The notes under the pieces: generated by a model
What the model saw: the letters and a program-made list of their open reading frames with translations, nothing else
Databases searched by the model: none
What the model was told of the DNA's origin: nothing
Part shown: positions 17,664 through 59,836 of the stretch, one piece after another
Numbering within the stretch: position 1 is the stretch's first letter
Layout: the number at the start of each line of letters is the position of its first letter
IMG/VR virus record: IMGVR_UViG_2861084961_000001
Direction: 5' to 3' (one strand)
DNA length: 64,000 bases
From: a virus
Taxonomy: Duplodnaviria > Heunggongvirae > Uroviricota > Caudoviricetes
Made by a program: the position numbers and the translations under genes

Positions 17664-18195
17664 CACCGCTGACAGCATACACAATCAACTGCCGCTGATA
17701 GCATATCGAGAGTCTATCTCACCGCTCACAGCATACTTTACTCGATTTTTACCGCTGACAGCATACTTAAGGCATTGCATGAATAATGTGTACCGGTATG
17801 GGTATAACCAGAACAAAATTACCGCTGGCAGCATACGAAGGTCTGACATATGCCATTAATTACCGCTGATAGCATATCCAAACAAAATTCCTCAATAAAA
17901 CACCGCTGACAGCATACGTTCTATCAGGGAGCAGCAGGCAATAAATGCCTTTCACTACAAGTAATCAGCGCAATGGCAATAGAATGTTAGTGAGCGCAAA
18001 CCTATATGGAATGCACTCTTCGAGGTTAGTAACCACTGGGGAGGTATAAAAGAGCATTGAGTGGTGATAGATGATTTACCGCTCACGGCATACGTTCATC
18101 TCACTATACCGCTGGTAGCATATCTTTAACCGTTCACAGCATACTTTTCAGAAAAATAGCCGCTGATAGCATACATTTCACCGCTGACAGCATAT
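17664..18195. repeat. iteron array: 12 direct copies of CCGCTGACAGCATAC-like 15-16 bp repeats downstream of repA (incA-like copy-control locus)
   Basis: Copies near 17666, 17692, 17722, 17752, 17822, 17863, 17903, 18079, 18109, 18130, 18160, 18181, same orientation. Confidence 0.8.
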
Positions 18196-19288
18196 CAAAG
18201 CAGTTTGAGACTATTGGAAAGGATCTCAATCATCTTGATATTTTCAGGCGTCAAATTCTGTGAAAGTTCGGTTATCTTATTGATAATGTTCTGTTTGGCA
18301 TCAATTTCCCCGGCTTTCTCATCTGGTTTTTTGGGTTCGATGTCTTCAGGTTTTGGCGGTGCGACTTTGAGTTTTGGATTGCGGCTGTGAATCTGGATAT
18401 AGATCGACCGCCCTCGCTTAATCTCGCTGTATTCGAGATAACCCAAATCTTGGAGAGCTTTTAAGCCGTTACGTATAGTCTGATTCTGCGAGCTGACATT
18501 CCTGCTACTCAAATTGAGTCGCGCACGCAATCGAGCAAGCGATACCGGCGCAGGCTTGGTTGGAAGACTTTCGATGAAGGTGTACAGAGCCTGTGCTGTT
18601 TCTTTGCGTGGTAGCTTATTGATAACCTTTAACTGTAAAAGAACCTTATGGTCAAAGCGATATAGTTCGGCCAGCTTCGGTTCTGCATAGAACACCACCG
18701 TATCTTTCTGCTCGTTGTAGTCCACGCTATTGATGAGGTGCACCATCAGAAGCGAGATCTTGTTAGAGCCGTCGACATTCTTTTCTTCATACGTTCTCTG
18801 GAAAGACAGAGTGGTACGCATAATCTTCAAAAGACTGTTTGTAAGCCGGTCGCGGAGTGTTTTGCGGATCTGTGACGATGGATAGCCACAAAACTTCGCA
18901 AATTTCGTGATGCTTAACTCGACACGACCGTTAGGTTCGCCGTATTCTGCCAGCGAACGCACAACGCCCACCCACGTTTTGAAATCATGATCCATGTCGA
19001 GACGAGGACCGGTTATCTTGATATCGGAATAGCCTTCAGAACGGGCTACTTCGAGCTGAACAAGCTCCTTTGAAGCATCGATCTCATTTGGCTTGTTACG
19101 CTTGCTGTATTTTGTCCCTTGAGCGTTGGCACGAACAACCCCAGCCGCATCAACGCAATTGGTTGGACTGTATTGTTGCTATTAGGGACAAGTTCCCCTG
19201 TGTACAATTCAAGGGAACCTTCTTCAAAGTTGTCGAGATTATCTTCTACTTCTTTGTTATTTTTACCTTTTTTATTTTTTGTGGACAT
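18195..19288 (-). CDS. repA: RepA replication initiator (P1 RepA / RepFIB family), one frameshift near 19125-19140
   Basis: Blocks match recalled P1 RepA: NSNNTVQPIALMRLGLFVP, KITGPRLDMDHDFKTWVGV, LPRKETAQALYTFIESLP, HSRNPKLK; ORFs 18195..18995 and 19046..19408 in different frames. Confidence 0.8.
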
Positions 19289-19309
19289 GTGGACACCTTT
19301 GTCATTCAA

Positions 19310-19410
19310 CCGCTGACAGCATACTTGATTTGCCGCTGGCAGCATACCAAAAACAGTTGGCAGCATACGGCGAACCGTTGACAGACTATCAATTACCGCT
19401 GGCAGCATAC
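19310..19410. repeat. five iterons of the same family spaced about 21 bp upstream of repA (origin)
   Basis: Copies near 19310, 19334, 19354, 19374 (degenerate), 19396. Confidence 0.8.
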
Positions 19411-19450
19411 ATGAACATGGCTTCAGACCAGTCGTGGCGCGGCTTACAGC

Positions 19451-19523
19451 GATCGGGGATCTTATTTGATCTATACAAGGATCTATCTATGGATCTCTTT
19501 ATTAGGATCTATCCTGTGGATAT
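19451..19523. promoter_or_regulatory. origin-associated cluster of six GATC sites in short repeats plus DnaA-box-like TGTGGATAT
   Basis: GATC at about 19451, 19458, 19468, 19480, 19492, 19506; TGTGGATAT at about 19515-19523. Confidence 0.55.
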
Positions 19524-19608
19524 GTAATAATTAAAACAGGCATTTACTACCTTCGGCGCACCTGGTGGGTTATCGTTGCCTCGGCTAACAATCACAGAAA
19601 AATGACAT

Positions 19609-51602: not shown

Positions 51603-51668
51603 AAAACAATTTGTTTTCTGCCTTTTGTTGATTGAGATAATAAGCCACATAAGAAAACAAATTGTTTC
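51603..51668. promoter_or_regulatory. two motif B palindromes (AAAACAA-T-TTGTTTT and GAAAACAAATTGTTTC)
   Basis: Immediately right of the metG terminator, upstream of 51681 gene. Confidence 0.45.
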
Positions 51669-52759: not shown

Positions 52760-52869
52760 AACATTGATAATGGCGGTCACAATTTGATTCTTTTCTATAA
52801 GAATCCGTTGATCGCCACTACTCCCCTTCCATACCTGCAATCACATCCTTAAATATCAATAGGTTGTAG

Positions 52870-53660
52870 TTGTTTATACAAACAAGAAAACAACTGAATA
52901 ACAGATCAACGAAACGTCAACGCTTTCACCCGATTTGGTCTAAAAAATTGACGTTTTCACACATCACTTCTTATACCCGCAATCCTACGCAGCAGACAGC
53001 GCCACAGCGTCCAATTTTCACCACAGACGACCCAACACACCACCAACAAAAACACACGCTCAAAATCGCTCTCGTTGCGTTACATAACCATATAAACAAC
53101 TTATTTTCAGGCATAACAAAACAACTAAATAACACATACGCAATTCCCAAAAACAACCAACCTCTTTATTGCAGGCTACCGAAAAGACCCACCTCTTCTT
53201 CCCAGGCTACCGGACAACCAACCTAACTTTCACAGGCAATCCGAAAACATTCATGCGCGCGATACCCACGACACGCCATTCCCCAAACAGCGAAGAAACA
53301 CCTGAACCACCGAAACCCCAACGAAGCCTGTAACCGCAAGGATTCTCTCAATCCCAAAAGACACGAAACATAACAATCACGGGAAACGCCATTACCCAAT
53401 ACACGAATAACTACAAAAGCCTTTCACACACTCCAGACAAACAACTCAAACACAATAACGAAAGGAATCGCCCACCTGCCATTACTCCATACACGGAGAA
53501 GAACAAGCACCAAAACGACGAGAACATCCCACAGAAGAACCACCGCAAAACTAACGAAACCATTTACACCGACAGAGAGAACAACACACCCAATTCACCA
53601 ACAGAATTAGTCGCCGTATAGAACGTTCTGGAAGGAGTGAGCATTAACGTCCATAGAGAG
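52870..53660. repeat. strand-asymmetric CA-rich non-coding region containing CAGGCTACCG-type direct repeats
   Basis: Plus strand almost free of G or T runs for about 800 bp; only ORF there is low-complexity; repeats near 53170, 53200, 53235. Confidence 0.45.
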
Positions 53661-53779
53661 GTTGAGACAGATAAAACACGAAGAAAACACAACATGTATA
53701 GCGAAGAAGCCAGGTATGTATAAGTGGGGAGGGAAGGAGGGGTGTCGCCTCCTTTTTCGTATTTATTCAACTCCTGATT

Positions 53780-53960
53780 TTATCCCCCGTAACACCCCTA
53801 CGGTCAGCCTTCGGTCCATACAGGGAAAGGCTGCATCCCGCTACAGAAACGGCTGGGTTGCCTTTGGGGAACGGCTGGAGGTTTTCAGGGAAACGGTCGA
53901 GTTGCCTTTGTGGATTTCGGGAAAAGGCTCGATGCCGGTTCAGGAACGGCGGCGTACCGG
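53780..53960. repeat. array of about six GGGAAACGGCT-like direct repeats spaced 22-30 bp
   Basis: CAGGGAAAGGCTG, CAGAAACGGCTGG, GGGAACGGCTGG, GGGAAACGGTCG, GGGAAAAGGCTCG, CAGGAACGGCGG. Confidence 0.45.
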
Positions 53961-54286
53961 TATAGCGAGAGGGAGAGTTGCGGCTACCCACCTGTAATGT
54001 GCGGGAAGAAGAGAGGCGCTCACGTGCAGGCGGACTTGCTTACCGCTGGATTCCCTCTGAATGCCCAGCTACAGCGTAATTGTGCCAGACAGCCAACGGG
54101 TCACGATCGATTTCAGTAGGTTTTCGGGGAGAGGATTATTCTGTCCACCAGCCACCTTCGGCCACTAAATCAGAATAATGTAAAAAGTGTACTCGGTACT
54201 GAACCTGAAAACTCACTGCCAAAACCACATTCACCGGAATAAAATCCTTTTTCGCCTGTGCGTTATTGCGATAATAACACCAACAA

Positions 54287-54301
54287 GAAAACATGTTGTT
54301 T
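54287..54301. promoter_or_regulatory. motif B palindrome (GAAAACATGTTGTTT)
   Basis: Upstream of 54314 gene. Confidence 0.4.
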
Positions 54302-54313
54302 AAGGATTGCTTT

Positions 54314-54643
54314 ATGTTTGCACATATCGACATCAACCAAATTAAGAAATTGACTCAAAAAGAGTTTGACCAGTTCTATGAGCTGGAAGGTTGGTCTTCC
54401 ACTCTGATTAATTCAAGATGGGTGCTGGAGCTGATGACTCGTGATGACGCACCTGCTTTGATGATTAGCGACCTGGGTGAAGATGCTGACTTTATGGATA
54501 TGAGCGAATTTTGTGTGGACACATACAACCGCAGCCAGAAGTACTACTTCACATGCGATAGCGAGAATGACGTGATTTCTAAGGTCTATCTTCACCTCGT
54601 CCAGCATTGGGACGTTCAGGAGTTTCTTGAGGTATTCGCGTAA
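54314..54643 (+). CDS. hypothetical protein (109 aa)
   Basis: ATG 54314 inside track ORF 54293..54643; motif-B site upstream. Confidence 0.4.
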   Translation: MFAHIDINQIKKLTQKEFDQFYELEGWSSTLINSRWVLELMTRDDAPALMISDLGEDADFMDMSEFCVDTYNRSQKYYFTCDSENDVISKVYLHLVQHWDVQEFLEVFA

Positions 54644-54769
54644 ACCAATCAAAGCCAGCATTGCTGGCTTAATTTCTCTATAGCCGCAGGGAGGAACCTG
54701 CATATCGCTCATGCACCTGATCAATATGCTTTGTAGCCGTTTTCTTACTGGTATTATTTACGCCATTGA

Positions 54770-54783
54770 GAAAACAAGTTGTT
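54770..54783. promoter_or_regulatory. motif B palindrome (AAAACAA-G-TTGTTT)
   Basis: Upstream of 54796 gene. Confidence 0.45.
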
Positions 54784-54795
54784 TACGGAGTTGTG

Positions 54796-55107
54796 ATGAA
54801 AAAATCATTGGTTCTTGGTCTGGACAAAGACCAGAAGAGAAAAGAGAAGCCTGCACTGGTTGCTCAATTAACTTTGCTGGACATCGTTGCCAATGGAACC
54901 TCTATTCGTCTGTTCCGTGAAACAGCGGTGTCTTTCGATAAAAACACCTTTACTCGTTATGTAATGAATGTTCGTCGCCAGCGTGGAAAAGGCTGGGTGG
55001 CATTTCAAAGAATGTGGCCGGAACATCAGCTCGAACTGGCTTTGATGGAAGTTAACCGCGTGGCCCAGCAAGAAATTCAGAGAGCATCAGTGATGGCAAT
55101 AGCCTGA
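54796..55107 (+). CDS. hypothetical basic protein (103 aa)
   Basis: ATG 54796 inside track ORF 54766..55107; motif-B site upstream. Confidence 0.4.
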   Translation: MKKSLVLGLDKDQKRKEKPALVAQLTLLDIVANGTSIRLFRETAVSFDKNTFTRYVMNVRRQRGKGWVAFQRMWPEHQLELALMEVNRVAQQEIQRASVMAIA

Positions 55108-55638: not shown

Positions 55639-55664
55639 AATGGCGCGTAAACCGCGCCATTTTC
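55639..55664 (+). terminator. rho-independent terminator AATGGCGCG-TAAAC-CGCGCCATT plus TTC
   Basis: Perfect 9-bp stem. Confidence 0.55.
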
Positions 55665-55673
55665 TTATGCCCG

Positions 55674-55690
55674 ATAACAATTTGTTTTCT
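55674..55690. promoter_or_regulatory. motif B palindrome (AACAA-T-TTGTT)
   Basis: Upstream of 55747 gene. Confidence 0.4.
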
Positions 55691-56268: not shown

Positions 56269-56436
56269 TATTAAGACCACCAGCATTGGTGGTCTTAAAT
56301 GACCATCCTGTTTCCCGCAGGCTAAAAACACCAACCTCTTACCTCCAGGCAACCGACAAACCCACCTGTTCCCGTCAGGCTACCGCAACTTTCCACTTTG
56401 ACGCCTTATTCGTACAACGATAATTAACGCCAACAA

Positions 56437-56451
56437 GAAAACAATTTGTTA
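56437..56451. promoter_or_regulatory. motif B palindrome (GAAAACAATTTGTTA)
   Basis: Upstream of 56472 gene. Confidence 0.4.
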
Positions 56452-56471: not shown

Positions 56472-56954
56472 ATGAATTTTATCGCTACTGTAAACGCACC
56501 CGCACATGGCAATATCGCTGTAACGTTCTCTGACATTGAAAAACGAGTACTTGGTGCCTGGCGTCACAATGAGACGGTAGAACTGTCAGCACAAGAAAAA
56601 TGCATTATTGCACGCGACATCATTGGCAATCGTCGTTACTCGCGGGTATTTGAGAAAGCGTATGTGGTAAATTCTGGATTCGGAACGTTCGTCTTTCCGG
56701 TGCGCTCCGGGCGATTCTGCCAGTCCAAGCTGATTGAGTTCGCTACGCAGATTTCTGTCTGGATTAAAACTCAATCGTCGTTCAAATTTTCCGACGATGA
56801 AGCAGTATCGCAGGGGATGCGGATCGCCAACAATGCAATTAAATGCAAAAACATTACGTATACCGCTGGCGTTGATACATGGAAACTGTTTTGCGCTAAC
56901 TTTATGCTGAATGTATACGCAAGCAACCGCATCCACATCCTTGATGGCGTGTAA
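56472..56954 (+). CDS. hypothetical protein (160 aa)
   Basis: ORF track; motif-B site upstream; followed by hairpin AGGGCC-AGAAAC-GGCCCT. Confidence 0.45.
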   Translation: MNFIATVNAPAHGNIAVTFSDIEKRVLGAWRHNETVELSAQEKCIIARDIIGNRRYSRVFEKAYVVNSGFGTFVFPVRSGRFCQSKLIEFATQISVWIKTQSSFKFSDDEAVSQGMRIANNAIKCKNITYTAGVDTWKLFCANFMLNVYASNRIHILDGV

Positions 56955-57570
56955 CTGAGAAGAGGGCCAGAAACGGCCCTTTCTCTATAGCCACCAGCTG
57001 CCGCAGGGAAATTTTCAGAAACGGCGAGGAACGTATTCATGAGCCGACGGGAAACGGCCAGGATTTTTTTCGGGAAACGGCTGTATTCGCCTTTATGTAG
57101 AAAAACATCGGGAAGCTGGTGGAATCCAACCAGCGGTTGTCGGACAGGTGAGCGGGGAAAATTATAATGACTTTCGTCGCCTGAGACATCCAGATTTCTT
57201 TCGTAGCATAATCACATACGTGATTAAGTGGTGTGATTATGTGAAAAATCACGCGCACATAATACGCGATCGGACACAGAACAAAACAAAATGCCGATCC
57301 GCACCGACAAATACACGCTGATCACATAGCAAGACTAAAAGCCAATGATTAACCATACTCTATAGCGCAATATAACGCGCTTTAAGCGCGTTAATGTGTT
57401 AAGTAATGGGTATGTACTGGCGAGGATATAAAAGCGCGACTATGGCGTTATTTTGGCGCTTATTTTTATGTTGTTGGAGTGAGTTAAAGACAATAAATAA
57501 CGCGCCAATGATGGCGCGTTATGGTGGGAGTATTGGAAACGAAAAAAGCGCCCATAGTGGGCGCTCGATT

Positions 57571-57798
57571 TTATTTATGTAAACTGATTTCAAATCCCAT
57601 TTCTACGAACGCTTTTAACATTAAAAATATATCAGCGTCGTTCACGTCTGCTTTTTTTCGCTCCTGGTCGCTCAATAAGTCAATTTTGCGCGTCGTTTCA
57701 TCTATAAGCTCAACAGATCCAGCGTAACCAGCGATCCCAGCAATATCATTAACACAATATTCATTGTGGACGTTAACGCCAGCGATAAGAACAAACAT
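57571..57798 (-). CDS. hypothetical protein (75 aa)
   Basis: ORF track; followed on minus strand by hairpin AGCGCCCA-TAG-TGGGCGCT and T-run. Confidence 0.35.
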   Translation of the reverse strand: MFVLIAGVNVHNEYCVNDIAGIAGYAGSVELIDETTRKIDLLSDQERKKADVNDADIFLMLKAFVEMGFEISLHK

Positions 57799-58070: not shown

Positions 58071-58720
58071 TTACGCTTTGAAAGCATCAGCTAGATAATT
58101 GTAGAAATCATTCTTGATAAAGCGATATTGCTGCGTACCAGCTTTGGCGCTTCCCATTCCTTTGACTTTCTCAACAAGTCCAAGACGTTCGCAAAGATTG
58201 ATCAACTGGTTGGCTTGAGTATAGCCAGCGTCCAATTTAATTTCGCACGCTTTTTTAGCTTCATTCATCAAATCGAAAACAGCGCCATTAGTGAACGTGT
58301 CGATCTCGTCGTTAATCATATCGATTAAAGCGAATACACGAGATCCAGACATATCAGCGACGGAATAAACACATTTACCAGCTTTAATGGATTTAACCAG
58401 ATAAACCAGTTTTCCAGTGAATAACTATTAGTCATAGCATCACGGAAAAATACTTCTGGCGCTTGTTTGCTTGCTTTAATCGCATAGTAGAAAACAGAGC
58501 ATAATTTTTCGTCTTCTACAGCGTTTACAACGTTGTTGATGAAGTAAGCAAGTTTAGTGGTCGCAGCTTGCATATTTGCTTTGTCTGCTTTAGTGTGCGT
58601 ACCATTTTTATAATGTTCGTTATATGTTTGAGTTGCCAGATCTGCTTTTTCGCGCAGCTCGTCGGATACAATAGATGCAGCTTCAATGATGGACTTTTTA
58701 GAAATGATAATGTTAGCCAT
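58071..58720 (-). CDS. hypothetical protein (ORFs 58325..58720 and 58071..58352, probably one gene)
   Basis: ORF track; overlapping frames. Confidence 0.35.
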
Positions 58721-59001
58721 GATAATTTTTCCTTATGTAAATTTAAAATTTATTGTCGTTAGCGTCTTCGCTTTCGACGAGTTCAATTATCGATATGCGA
58801 AAAAAGATTGCAAGTATTTTTTTTAAATTTTTTGCAGGGATGAAAGTCCTAGAAATAAAAGCGAGATCGTCGAAGGTGTTCCCTAAATAAATAATCGATT
58901 CCGGCTTTCGACCTTATATATTTAGGTTGTTTGATTTATAGATATAAAGAAGTGATGTGAAAAATAATAACCGGACTTAGCCGGTTATTAACCTTATAGA
59001 T

Positions 59002-59310
59002 TTATTGAACAGACTCTACAGCCTTACGATTGGTGTCAAATAGCGCATCAACGAACTGTGCCGATGACTCGCTAGATTCGCAATCCAACATTGCCCGTTC
59101 TTCATTTGCCACTTTCTTACACAGTTCCACATTCTCACCTATCGCTTTTCCTGCTTTTACGGCTGCCGAAAATTGATACATGCAAACTGATACATTCTGA
59201 GATGTTGAGCACACGTCATTCATCAGCGACTGAATGACAGGCTTATAGTCCATTGCATTTGCTGCAACTGAGCAAAGTAAAAAAAATGGTGGTAACAATA
59301 TCGATTTCAT
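59002..59310 (-). CDS. secreted Cys-containing small protein with signal peptide
   Basis: MKSILLPPFFLLCSVAANA signal-like N-terminus. Confidence 0.4.
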   Translation of the reverse strand: MKSILLPPFFLLCSVAANAMDYKPVIQSLMNDVCSTSQNVSVCMYQFSAAVKAGKAIGENVELCKKVANEERAMLDCESSESSAQFVDALFDTNRKAVESVQ

Positions 59311-59353: not shown

Positions 59354-59836
59354 CTATTTTTCTACCGTTCTCGACACGTAGTGTAACCTGACAAGCATCT
59401 GCGCCTGCTGACACCCCTCAATTTCACGGCCATCCGCCATGTACACTCTTATAGATTTGTTTGCTTTATAGGCTTGGTTGCAAATAGCAAAAAAATCGCG
59501 GCGTGATGGCCGATTATCGACATAATCAGGATGAACTGTTAATCGACCTTTGAAATCGTGAGCGATACTGTCAACCACACCTGATTCAATTGTACTAATG
59601 CGTTCAAGTGGGAGCCTTATACGATTTTCTTTGTCAAAAGGGGCTGGGCAAAGGTCAACTTTGTTACGAGATGGCATGAGGCCATAAACGTACATGCAAA
59701 ACGCCTGGCCATCTTCCAGAGTGGCCCTTACAGGAATTTGTTCTCTGCGCCAGAACATCAGTAGTTTTTCAACGTTAGTGTAATCTCGCGGCCAGAGTTC
59801 AGCTTGGATACCGTAGGTAATATCTTTGGTTGTCAT
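59354..59836 (-). CDS. hypothetical protein (160 aa)
   Basis: Internal ATG 59836 directly after the upstream stop inside track ORF 59354..59914. Confidence 0.4.
   Translation of the reverse strand: MTTKDITYGIQAELWPRDYTNVEKLLMFWRREQIPVRATLEDGQAFCMYVYGLMPSRNKVDLCPAPFDKENRIRLPLERISTIESGVVDSIAHDFKGRLTVHPDYVDNRPSRRDFFAICNQAYKANKSIRVYMADGREIEGCQQAQMLVRLHYVSRTVEK

Follow-up and report, generated by a model that had tools for sequence, protein, structure and literature searches.

Two phased direct-repeat arrays bracketing a small-gene module in SSU5-type phage-plasmids, candidate sites for protein binding to DNA

We identified two arrays of a short direct repeat, GGGAAACGG, about 3 kb apart in a 64,000-nt stretch of DNA (referred to as the window) that represents part of an SSU5/pHCM2/pMT1-type phage-plasmid of E. 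coli (Escherichia). All copies point in the same direction, they are spaced by two or three turns of the helix, they cluster nowhere else in the genome, and they are conserved in relatives. We favor, with moderate confidence, the reading that these are phased protein-binding DNA arrays at which two complexes would cooperate across the bracketed module as part of the phage programme. SSU5-type phage-plasmids, including pHCM2 of S. Typhi and pMT1 of Y. pestis, are frequent in clinical Enterobacteriaceae, and their plasmid/phage life switch, lytic origin and packaging signals are essentially uncharacterised. A conserved, genome-unique pair of arrays offers a concrete handle on a key DNA-binding factor and on the process that it controls, and the arrays are short enough for direct mutation or cloning. 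Should they turn out to be ordinary regulatory repeats, the gain for annotation would be modest.

Setting and anatomy of the arrays

Around array 2, 5.5 kb of sequence share 98% identity with E. coli plasmid pMRY16-002_2 and 94–96% with the phages CMS-2020a, PhiR41_1 and Cyrano, and the array region matches 773 plasmid records. As stated in the original prediction, array 2 is intergenic between convergent gene sets. The gap measures 616 bp; on its left is the 160-aa gene on the + strand, which ends at 56954, and on its right a − strand operon, whose last gene (75 aa) has its stop at 57571.

The core of each site is about 10 bp in length, (C/A)(G/A)GGAAA(C/A)GG(C/T). Array 1 comprises six sites and array 2, which spans 57000–57119 with the same motif and orientation, three to four (Table 1). 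The spacings are 22, 22, 21, 31 and 23 bp in array 1 and 33 and 23 bp in array 2, and thus approximate 22 bp (two helical turns) or 31–33 bp (three turns). A period of 22 nt excludes a repeated peptide, i.e., coding repeats. Each array is directly downstream of an intrinsic terminator, and array 1 starts about 65 nt after the one at 53731–53757. The cluster at 53.8 kb, which had been predicted to share the motif, is real, and we revise its content to six copies, only one of them exact; most of the others depart from the consensus in a single base or by a single deletion.

Array 2 had been credited with at least four copies. Three exact copies hold, together with a half-copy and a degenerate copy. 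The remaining one, at 56970, was rejected as an array member, as it is made up of the loop and 3′ stem of the terminator that follows the 160-aa gene, and in relatives the motif decays there to GGAAACGCC, GGAATGCC and GGAGACGG. The hairpin of this terminator (56964–56979) is followed by TTTCTCT, as in intrinsic terminators. Among 11 lineages its stem pairs as GGGCC/GGCCC, GGGGC/GCCCC or GCGTC/GGCGC, which involves GC-to-CG covariation as well as one-sided changes. We read its conserved GAAA-type loop as a GNRA-like tetraloop. With the hairpins and tandem terminators on the far side of array 2, terminators on both strands close the array in a pocket that is shielded from transcription coming from the right.

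Table 1. Coordinates of the repeat copies, terminators and genes at and near the two arrays (positions in the window)
Feature	Position	Strand	Remarks
Array 1, six same-strand copies	53823..53950	+	GGGAAAGGC, AGAAACGGC, GGGAACGGC, GGGAAACGGT, GGGAAAAGGC, AGGAACGGC
103-aa orphan gene (phrog_5125)	54796..55107	+	Always between the arrays
160-aa orphan gene (phrog_1641)	56472..56954	+	Directly upstream of array 2; always between the arrays
Intrinsic terminator of the 160-aa gene	56964..56986	+	GGGCC-AGAAAC-GGCCC, then T-rich tail; stem covaries
Array 2, 5′ half-copy	57000..57011	+	GCCGCAGGGAAA, without the CGG part; CCGCAGGGAAA nearly invariant
Array 2, copy 2	57016..57025	+	CAGAAACGGC, weaker and variable; 33 bp before copy 3
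Array 2, copy 3	57049..57058	+	GGGAAACGGC; GGGAAACGG invariant in 15/15 lineage representatives; segment conservation 0.92
Array 2, copy 4	57072..57081	+	GGGAAACGGC after a T-run; TTTTCGGGAAACGGC invariant; segment conservation 0.96
Array 2, degenerate distal copy	57110..57119	+	GGGAAGCTGG; CGGGAGAAGC in relatives
Two further terminator-like hairpins	57252–57309		Shield array 2 together with the pair at 57497..57566
Tandem pair of intrinsic terminators at the end of the leftward operon	57497..57566	−	Invariant in relatives
216-aa gene (phrog_1513), candidate binder	58071..58720	−	N-terminal helical domain and C-terminal winged helix; split by a 1-nt deletion at 58409; intact in WP_052967545
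FljA-family gene (Pfam Flag1_repress)	59354..59836	−	Hfq/Sm-like C-terminal domain; C-terminus frameshifted in the window

Two Chi sites in opposite orientation flank array 2, at 56991–56998 (− strand) and 57115–57122 (+ strand). The former, CCACCAGC, is kept in most relatives, and the latter, GCTGGTGG, overlaps the degenerate copy and is limited to the lineage of the window. The window contains 14 Chi sites in 64 kb, 10 of which are on the − strand. Downstream of array 2, the segment 57205–57270 is dense in inverted repeats, with AATCAC/GTGATT occurring four times along with CACATAAT/ATTATGTG. Only TGTGATTATGTGAA is kept there in relatives. These inverted repeats could represent an operator or a small-RNA structure.

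Exact GAAACGGC occurs six times in the window, where about 2.1 occurrences are expected. The positions are 56970, 57018, 57051 and 57074, all on the + strand, as well as 53846 and 3426 (− strand). We built a 13-nt weight matrix on six copies, such that three of the array hits fall outside the matrix-building set. With it, each locus yielded five hits on the same strand within 150 bp, compared with a maximum of two in 200 first-order Markov random sequences. The genome-wide scan used the near-identical plasmid pMRY16-002_2 (108,986 bp, 867 bp of which were left out), in which hits of at least 12.5 bits cluster only at the two array loci, with two lone hits elsewhere. An unbiased scan for 7-mers with at least four spaced same-strand copies in 160 bp picked up the array and the RepB iterons and, apart from these, only one site, located among genes annotated as tail-related. 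The original prediction had named the background frequency of the motif elsewhere in the genome as its critical check; elsewhere the motif is indeed at background, and clustering is specific to the two loci.

Conservation, and action as DNA or as RNA

Salmonella phage SSU5, pHCM2 of S. Typhi and an E. cloacae plasmid carry both arrays, with order and orientation unchanged, and the copy number and spacing of array 1 are identical in the latter two. In a K. pneumoniae plasmid, array 2 is accompanied by a reduced array 1, and Y. pestis pMT1 retains only array 2, with an IS1541 in the array 1 region. The motif, the order of its copies and their spacing thus persist in Salmonella, Klebsiella, Enterobacter and Yersinia relatives. 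In a divergent lineage (L020, L032, L077, L087 and L107) the flanking DNA is unalignable and the neighboring proteins are only 30–60% identical, and this lineage still keeps ...GAAAACGG-N-GGGAAACGG-N-TTTTCGGGAAACGG..., with spacings of 34 and 24 bp, as well as a reduced array 1.

Among 15 lineage representatives, copies 3 and 4 of array 2 are the most conserved segments, compared with 0.73 for the end of the coding sequence, 0.71–0.84 for the spacers and 0.68 for the downstream DNA. In terms of column conservation (0.92–0.96 against 0.68–0.78 in the flanks), the two clusters are the best-conserved local non-coding stretches. Copy 2 varies among relatives as CATAAACGGC, CAGGAACGGC or TGAAAACGGC. 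The distance from copy 3 to copy 4 is 23 bp in the window and 22 bp in most relatives, and spacing in general is kept within 1–2 bp (22/23, 21/22, 21/22, 31 and 22/23 bp in array 1; 33 and 22/23 bp in array 2). The distance between the arrays ranges from 1.5 to 3.6 kb among relatives, a variability that would permit looping.

These comparisons bear on whether the repeats have any dedicated function. They might be chance or relic duplications of terminator-proximal sequence, given that one of the four copies initially listed is a terminator loop and that both arrays follow terminators, each about 650 bp downstream of a second repeat family, a layout compatible with ancient duplication of a module. 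However, the cores do not vary even between lineages with unalignable flanks, the conserved spacing indicates purifying selection, and the clustering is far beyond random expectation. We therefore consider an origin without function extremely unlikely.

When viral contigs were scanned for two spaced copies of the motif, most of those retrieved were SSU5-like. As for the same motif pair in unrelated phages, 26 of the loci that we checked are unalignable to the window, and those inspected are short tandem runs or lone pairs, some of the latter apparently inside coding sequence; we rejected them as counterparts. In the open literature on SSU5, pHCM2 and pMT1 we found no description of the motif or the arrays. 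Elements of this kind, with phased direct repeats for binding in two clusters, are well known; the present pair appears to be undescribed and is family-wide.

RNAalifold analysis of 11 lineage representatives detected covariation only in the terminator and none in the array. The pairs predicted inside the array are invariant and hence uninformative with regard to RNA structure. A search of the whole window against Rfam at gathering thresholds returned no match. The helical phasing and the terminator-closed pocket favor an element that would act as duplex DNA, so far as sequence features can indicate this. The polarity of the arrays relative to upstream transcription is the same for both, which could also be explained by a function at the RNA level, and lends little support to such a role.

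A concrete version of an RNA role is suggested by analogy with FljA, which binds the fliC mRNA leader. The motif would be part of read-through transcripts, in which the FljA-family (Hfq/Sm-like) protein, whose gene lies 2.3 kb away, would bind it. The gene for that protein is well supported (Pfam PF03614, E = 2.8e-67), an intact homologue has a sub-threshold Hfq match, and the gene is kept in plasmids of Klebsiella and Y. pestis. These hosts are non-motile, so the target of the protein is probably phage-encoded. Both arrays are of like polarity just downstream of terminators, and the E. coli fliC leader and array 2 have TGAGCCGACGGG and GGAAAC in common. However, across the 64-kb window the 12-mer match is no better than expected by chance, and shuffled leaders score equal or higher: the best local alignment score of 24 is within their range of 22–30. 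Nor is TGAGCCGACGGG conserved, as relatives have GAACCGAAGGG, and we rejected array 2 as a mimic of the fliC leader. We thus found in array 2 neither above-chance resemblance to a fliC-leader-type target nor conserved RNA structure. The lack of covariation, spacing in multiples of a helical turn, for which RNA provides no rationale, and the location of the arrays beyond efficient-looking terminators also count against this version, which we regard as quite unlikely.

Genes of the module and candidate binders

The module between the arrays is a variable set of small genes, and its shortest natural form contains only the 103-aa and 160-aa genes. Neither protein belongs to a recognisable family. 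For the 103-aa protein we found no family or solved relative. By eye it might be taken for a helix-turn-helix protein; against this, the divergent lineage has an insertion of 9–10 aa in the putative turn. The 160-aa protein has a confident model, with no match in the PDB or BFVD. The phrog_1513 winged-helix protein, encoded about 1 kb to the right of array 2, is unusually conserved.

In a lysogen of strain LF82 (Cyrano), the 103-aa and 160-aa genes are transcribed above background, and the inter-array genes are expressed between immediate flanks that are silent; the winged-helix gene is at the RNA-seq floor (PMC9928086, S1 table). With the inter-array genes expressed and the winged-helix gene at the floor, which protein could be the binder depends on the phase of the life cycle that is relevant. 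Candidates are the winged-helix protein or one of the two inter-array orphan proteins, and the FljA-family protein is a candidate if the motif acts in RNA. Homologues of the phrog_1513, 160-aa and FljA-like proteins are encoded almost only on contigs of SSU5-like size (approximately 100–115 kb). Given that the candidates are almost confined to this family and are invariant together with the motif, co-variation ties no protein to it.

Several other features of the module were noted. A near-identical cassette of promoter plus palindrome (...GATAAT...AAACAAnTTGTTT) precedes each small + strand gene, at 51604, 51655, 54246–54300, 54729–54783, 55661–55690 and 56396–56450, which suggests a common repressor or operator over the whole small-gene set. 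The second repeat family has a 23-nt unit, ACCnnCCTsTT-N6-CAGGCwA, present three times at about 30-bp spacing in both 53153–53236 and 56302–56382. The latter set is just upstream of the promoter of the 160-aa gene. As one set lies about 650 bp upstream of each GGGAAACGG array, the two loci look like parallel modules.

The + strand of the approximately 850-nt stretch 52850–53700 is strongly biased in composition (A 40%, C 30%, G 14%, T 17%), with a GC skew down to −0.57. It contains no convincing ORF and ends at the terminator before array 1. The stretch also occurs in L005 (880–1720) and L032 (6400–7300), and the strand bias and three to five copies of GCCATTAC...ACGGAGAAGAAC are kept even in the divergent lineage. 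The 5′ part of the stretch is silent in the LF82 lysogen. It may represent a long non-coding RNA or serve for Rho loading.

Compared with pMRY16-002_2, the region at 59.8–60.3 kb is mosaic, and a 311-bp segment (59000–59310) that encodes a 102-aa protein with a signal peptide is present in the window and absent from that plasmid. Single-base indels relative to close relatives were detected at 58409, 59413, 63045 and 63741, three of the four in homopolymer runs. They break the winged-helix gene, the FljA-like gene and the ParB-like gene(s); repB (near 19000) is split into two ORFs. The gene-breaking indels are probably sequencing or assembly errors, and could also be those of a decaying element.

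Possible functions of the arrays

The clusters, their shared orientation, conservation and phasing, and the lack of RNA covariation fit sequence-specific binding of a protein to DNA. The original prediction of two separated clusters as paired protein-binding sites is upheld to the extent that both clusters are real, co-oriented, unique in the genome, conserved and phased, and loses the terminator copy. We infer that a protein binds the arrays, which proteins are candidates for this, that the arrays cooperate and what they may do. In detail, both clusters would be iteron-like arrays of sites on double-stranded DNA for a sequence-specific protein, and helical phasing would align the bound proteins on roughly one face of the helix. 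A protein encoded by the phage-plasmid would coat array 1 and array 2, and the two complexes would cooperate by pairing or looping over 1.5–3.6 kb. Bridging between the arrays is plausible by analogy with known systems. The arrays would serve the phage side rather than plasmid maintenance, either to control or insulate the module or to mark a site for a DNA transaction in the lytic phase. One point against binding arrays is that they overlap no predicted sigma-70 promoter, so that a simple operator role is not evident.

A regulatory parallel is with the OL/OR operator triplets of lambda, which flank the immunity region and are bridged by CI octamers. As in lambda, at least three sites occur at a period of about 23 bp, two arrays about 2–3 kb apart bracket a few genes, and the genes between them are expressed in the LF82 lysogen while the flanks are silent. 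In contrast to the lambda operators, the sites are asymmetric direct repeats rather than palindromes, and there is no overlap with a predicted promoter. The putative repressor of the phage is annotated elsewhere, as CYRAN_45 (PMC9928086).

A different set of parallels comes from replication. Direct repeats phased at 22 bp are a hallmark of iterons, and in P4 (ori/crr) and R6K (gamma with the alpha and beta origins) clusters of sites cooperate at a distance. By analogy, the arrays might be iterons for a phage initiator in a lytic-phase replication origin with an enhancer, which we regard as unlikely. We know of no lytic origin of an SSU5-type element. The element has genes of its own for DnaE, a DnaB-like helicase, a primase and a UvsW-like helicase, and no other iteron-like array occurs near the replisome genes or anywhere except at the RepB origin. 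Two clusters kilobases apart at a variable distance, a winged-helix candidate that is silent in lysogeny, as expected of a lytic initiator, and the dispensability of array 1 for plasmid life also accord with such an origin. However, there is no AT-rich unwinding element, the local GC content being 0.50–0.58 compared with about 0.45 for the genome. Neither a DnaA box (TTATCCACA, allowing at most one mismatch) nor an IHF consensus was detected in the flanks scanned (53300–54400 and 56900–57650). Moreover, no recognisable initiator family is encoded adjacent to the arrays, the replisome genes are far away, and the cumulative GC skew has no inflection attributable to the arrays.

In P4, the octamer TGTTCACC is clustered at ori and at crr, which are 4.5 kb apart, are both bound by the alpha protein and act at a distance. 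The likeness is that of one short motif in two clusters kilobases apart on a phage-plasmid-like element. In contrast to P4, no alpha-type primase-helicase is encoded adjacent to the arrays, and for the arrays a role in replication would be conjectural.

With iterons of plasmid Rep proteins the arrays have in common repeats of the same orientation at a period of about 22 bp. However, no cognate Rep gene is adjacent, and the neighboring proteins match neither a Rep nor another Pfam family. The sole Rep, of the RepB family, is encoded about 34 kb away and has different iterons, which led us to reject the arrays as sites of the plasmid Rep. The plasmid origin itself (17673–17902 and 19300–19530) comprises five 21-bp iterons, CCGCTGGCAGCATAC..., and a GATC-rich block upstream of repB that includes the DnaA-box-like TGTGGATA, as well as a second iteron group downstream of repB, in a RepFIB/P1-like layout. 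The RepFIB/P1-type iterons of this element (17.7–19.5 kb) resemble the arrays in that same-strand repeats with a period of about 21–22 bp form two genome-unique groups that lie kilobases apart and bracket one or more genes. They differ from the arrays in the motif, CCGCTGGCAGCATAC rather than GGGAAACGG, and no known initiator gene is located between or beside the arrays, which also lack an AT-rich region, a DnaA box and a GATC cluster, and one of which is dispensable in pMT1.

pMT1 is stably maintained in Y. pestis. As it does so without array 1, this array is at least dispensable for plasmid maintenance, and a role of the arrays in maintenance is unlikely. This bears on whether they could be a centromere-like partition site of a plasmid segregation system. 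Centromeres such as parC, tubC and parC1/parC2 are direct-repeat arrays, sometimes in two clusters, which is the likeness in favor of such a site. However, no partition operon (an NTPase together with a centromere-binding protein) adjoins the arrays, and there is no adjacent motor gene of the ParA, ParM or TubZ type. A small ATPase gene of ParA-like size is located elsewhere, with no such motif nearby, and the ParB_N proteins encoded at 62.2–63.6 kb, about 5 kb away, have the N-terminal domain only. In view of this and of the stability of pMT1, we consider a centromere highly improbable.

Returning to phased arrays that bind a protein for the phage side, a bolder version can be formulated, which we offer as speculative and unlikely. 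The arrays, the two bracketed orphan genes and the winged-helix protein might form an undescribed cis/trans system that the whole SSU5/pHCM2/pMT1 group of phage-plasmids has in common, the S. Typhi and Y. pestis elements among them. Such a system would amount to the missing lytic origin and its distant enhancer, or else to a looped boundary that sets off an island expressed in lysogeny.

Finally, the motif resembles part of a packaging signal. The core GGAAACG is a 7-mer found three times in lambda cosB, at 53 (−), 114 (+) and 155 (−), which we take to be the R3, R2 and R1 sites bound by the winged helix of gpNu1. By analogy, the arrays would be a cosB- or pac-like recognition site for the small terminase subunit or for an accessory winged-helix protein, and a winged-helix protein is indeed encoded next to array 2. 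The likeness to cosB consists of this 7-bp core (GGAAACG/CGTTTCC) in several copies within about 120 bp, and several copies of the R-site core CGTTTCC are present here as well. In contrast, the R sites of lambda occur in both orientations, lie on either side of an IHF site and adjoin cosN and nu1, whereas all copies in the arrays are direct. We found no IHF site, and the arrays are not in the cosB position, beside a nicking site and the gene of a Nu1-family TerS. The presumed terS/terL genes are about 8.5 kb downstream of array 2, and no Pfam family, Nu1 included, matches the presumed TerS (phrog_867). Furthermore, the two arrays are 3 kb apart rather than one compact site, and the R sites score weakly on the matrix (at most 9.6 bits), so the shared 7-mer can be due to chance. 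We judge a packaging role very unlikely.

Just upstream of the presumed terS, outside the window, L003 (32410–32465) has a large AT-rich palindrome, CTGCTTCTGTATATATAAATAATAAGTAACTTATTAAATATATACGGAAGCAG. By its position, this palindrome is a better candidate than the arrays for a packaging or late-control site.
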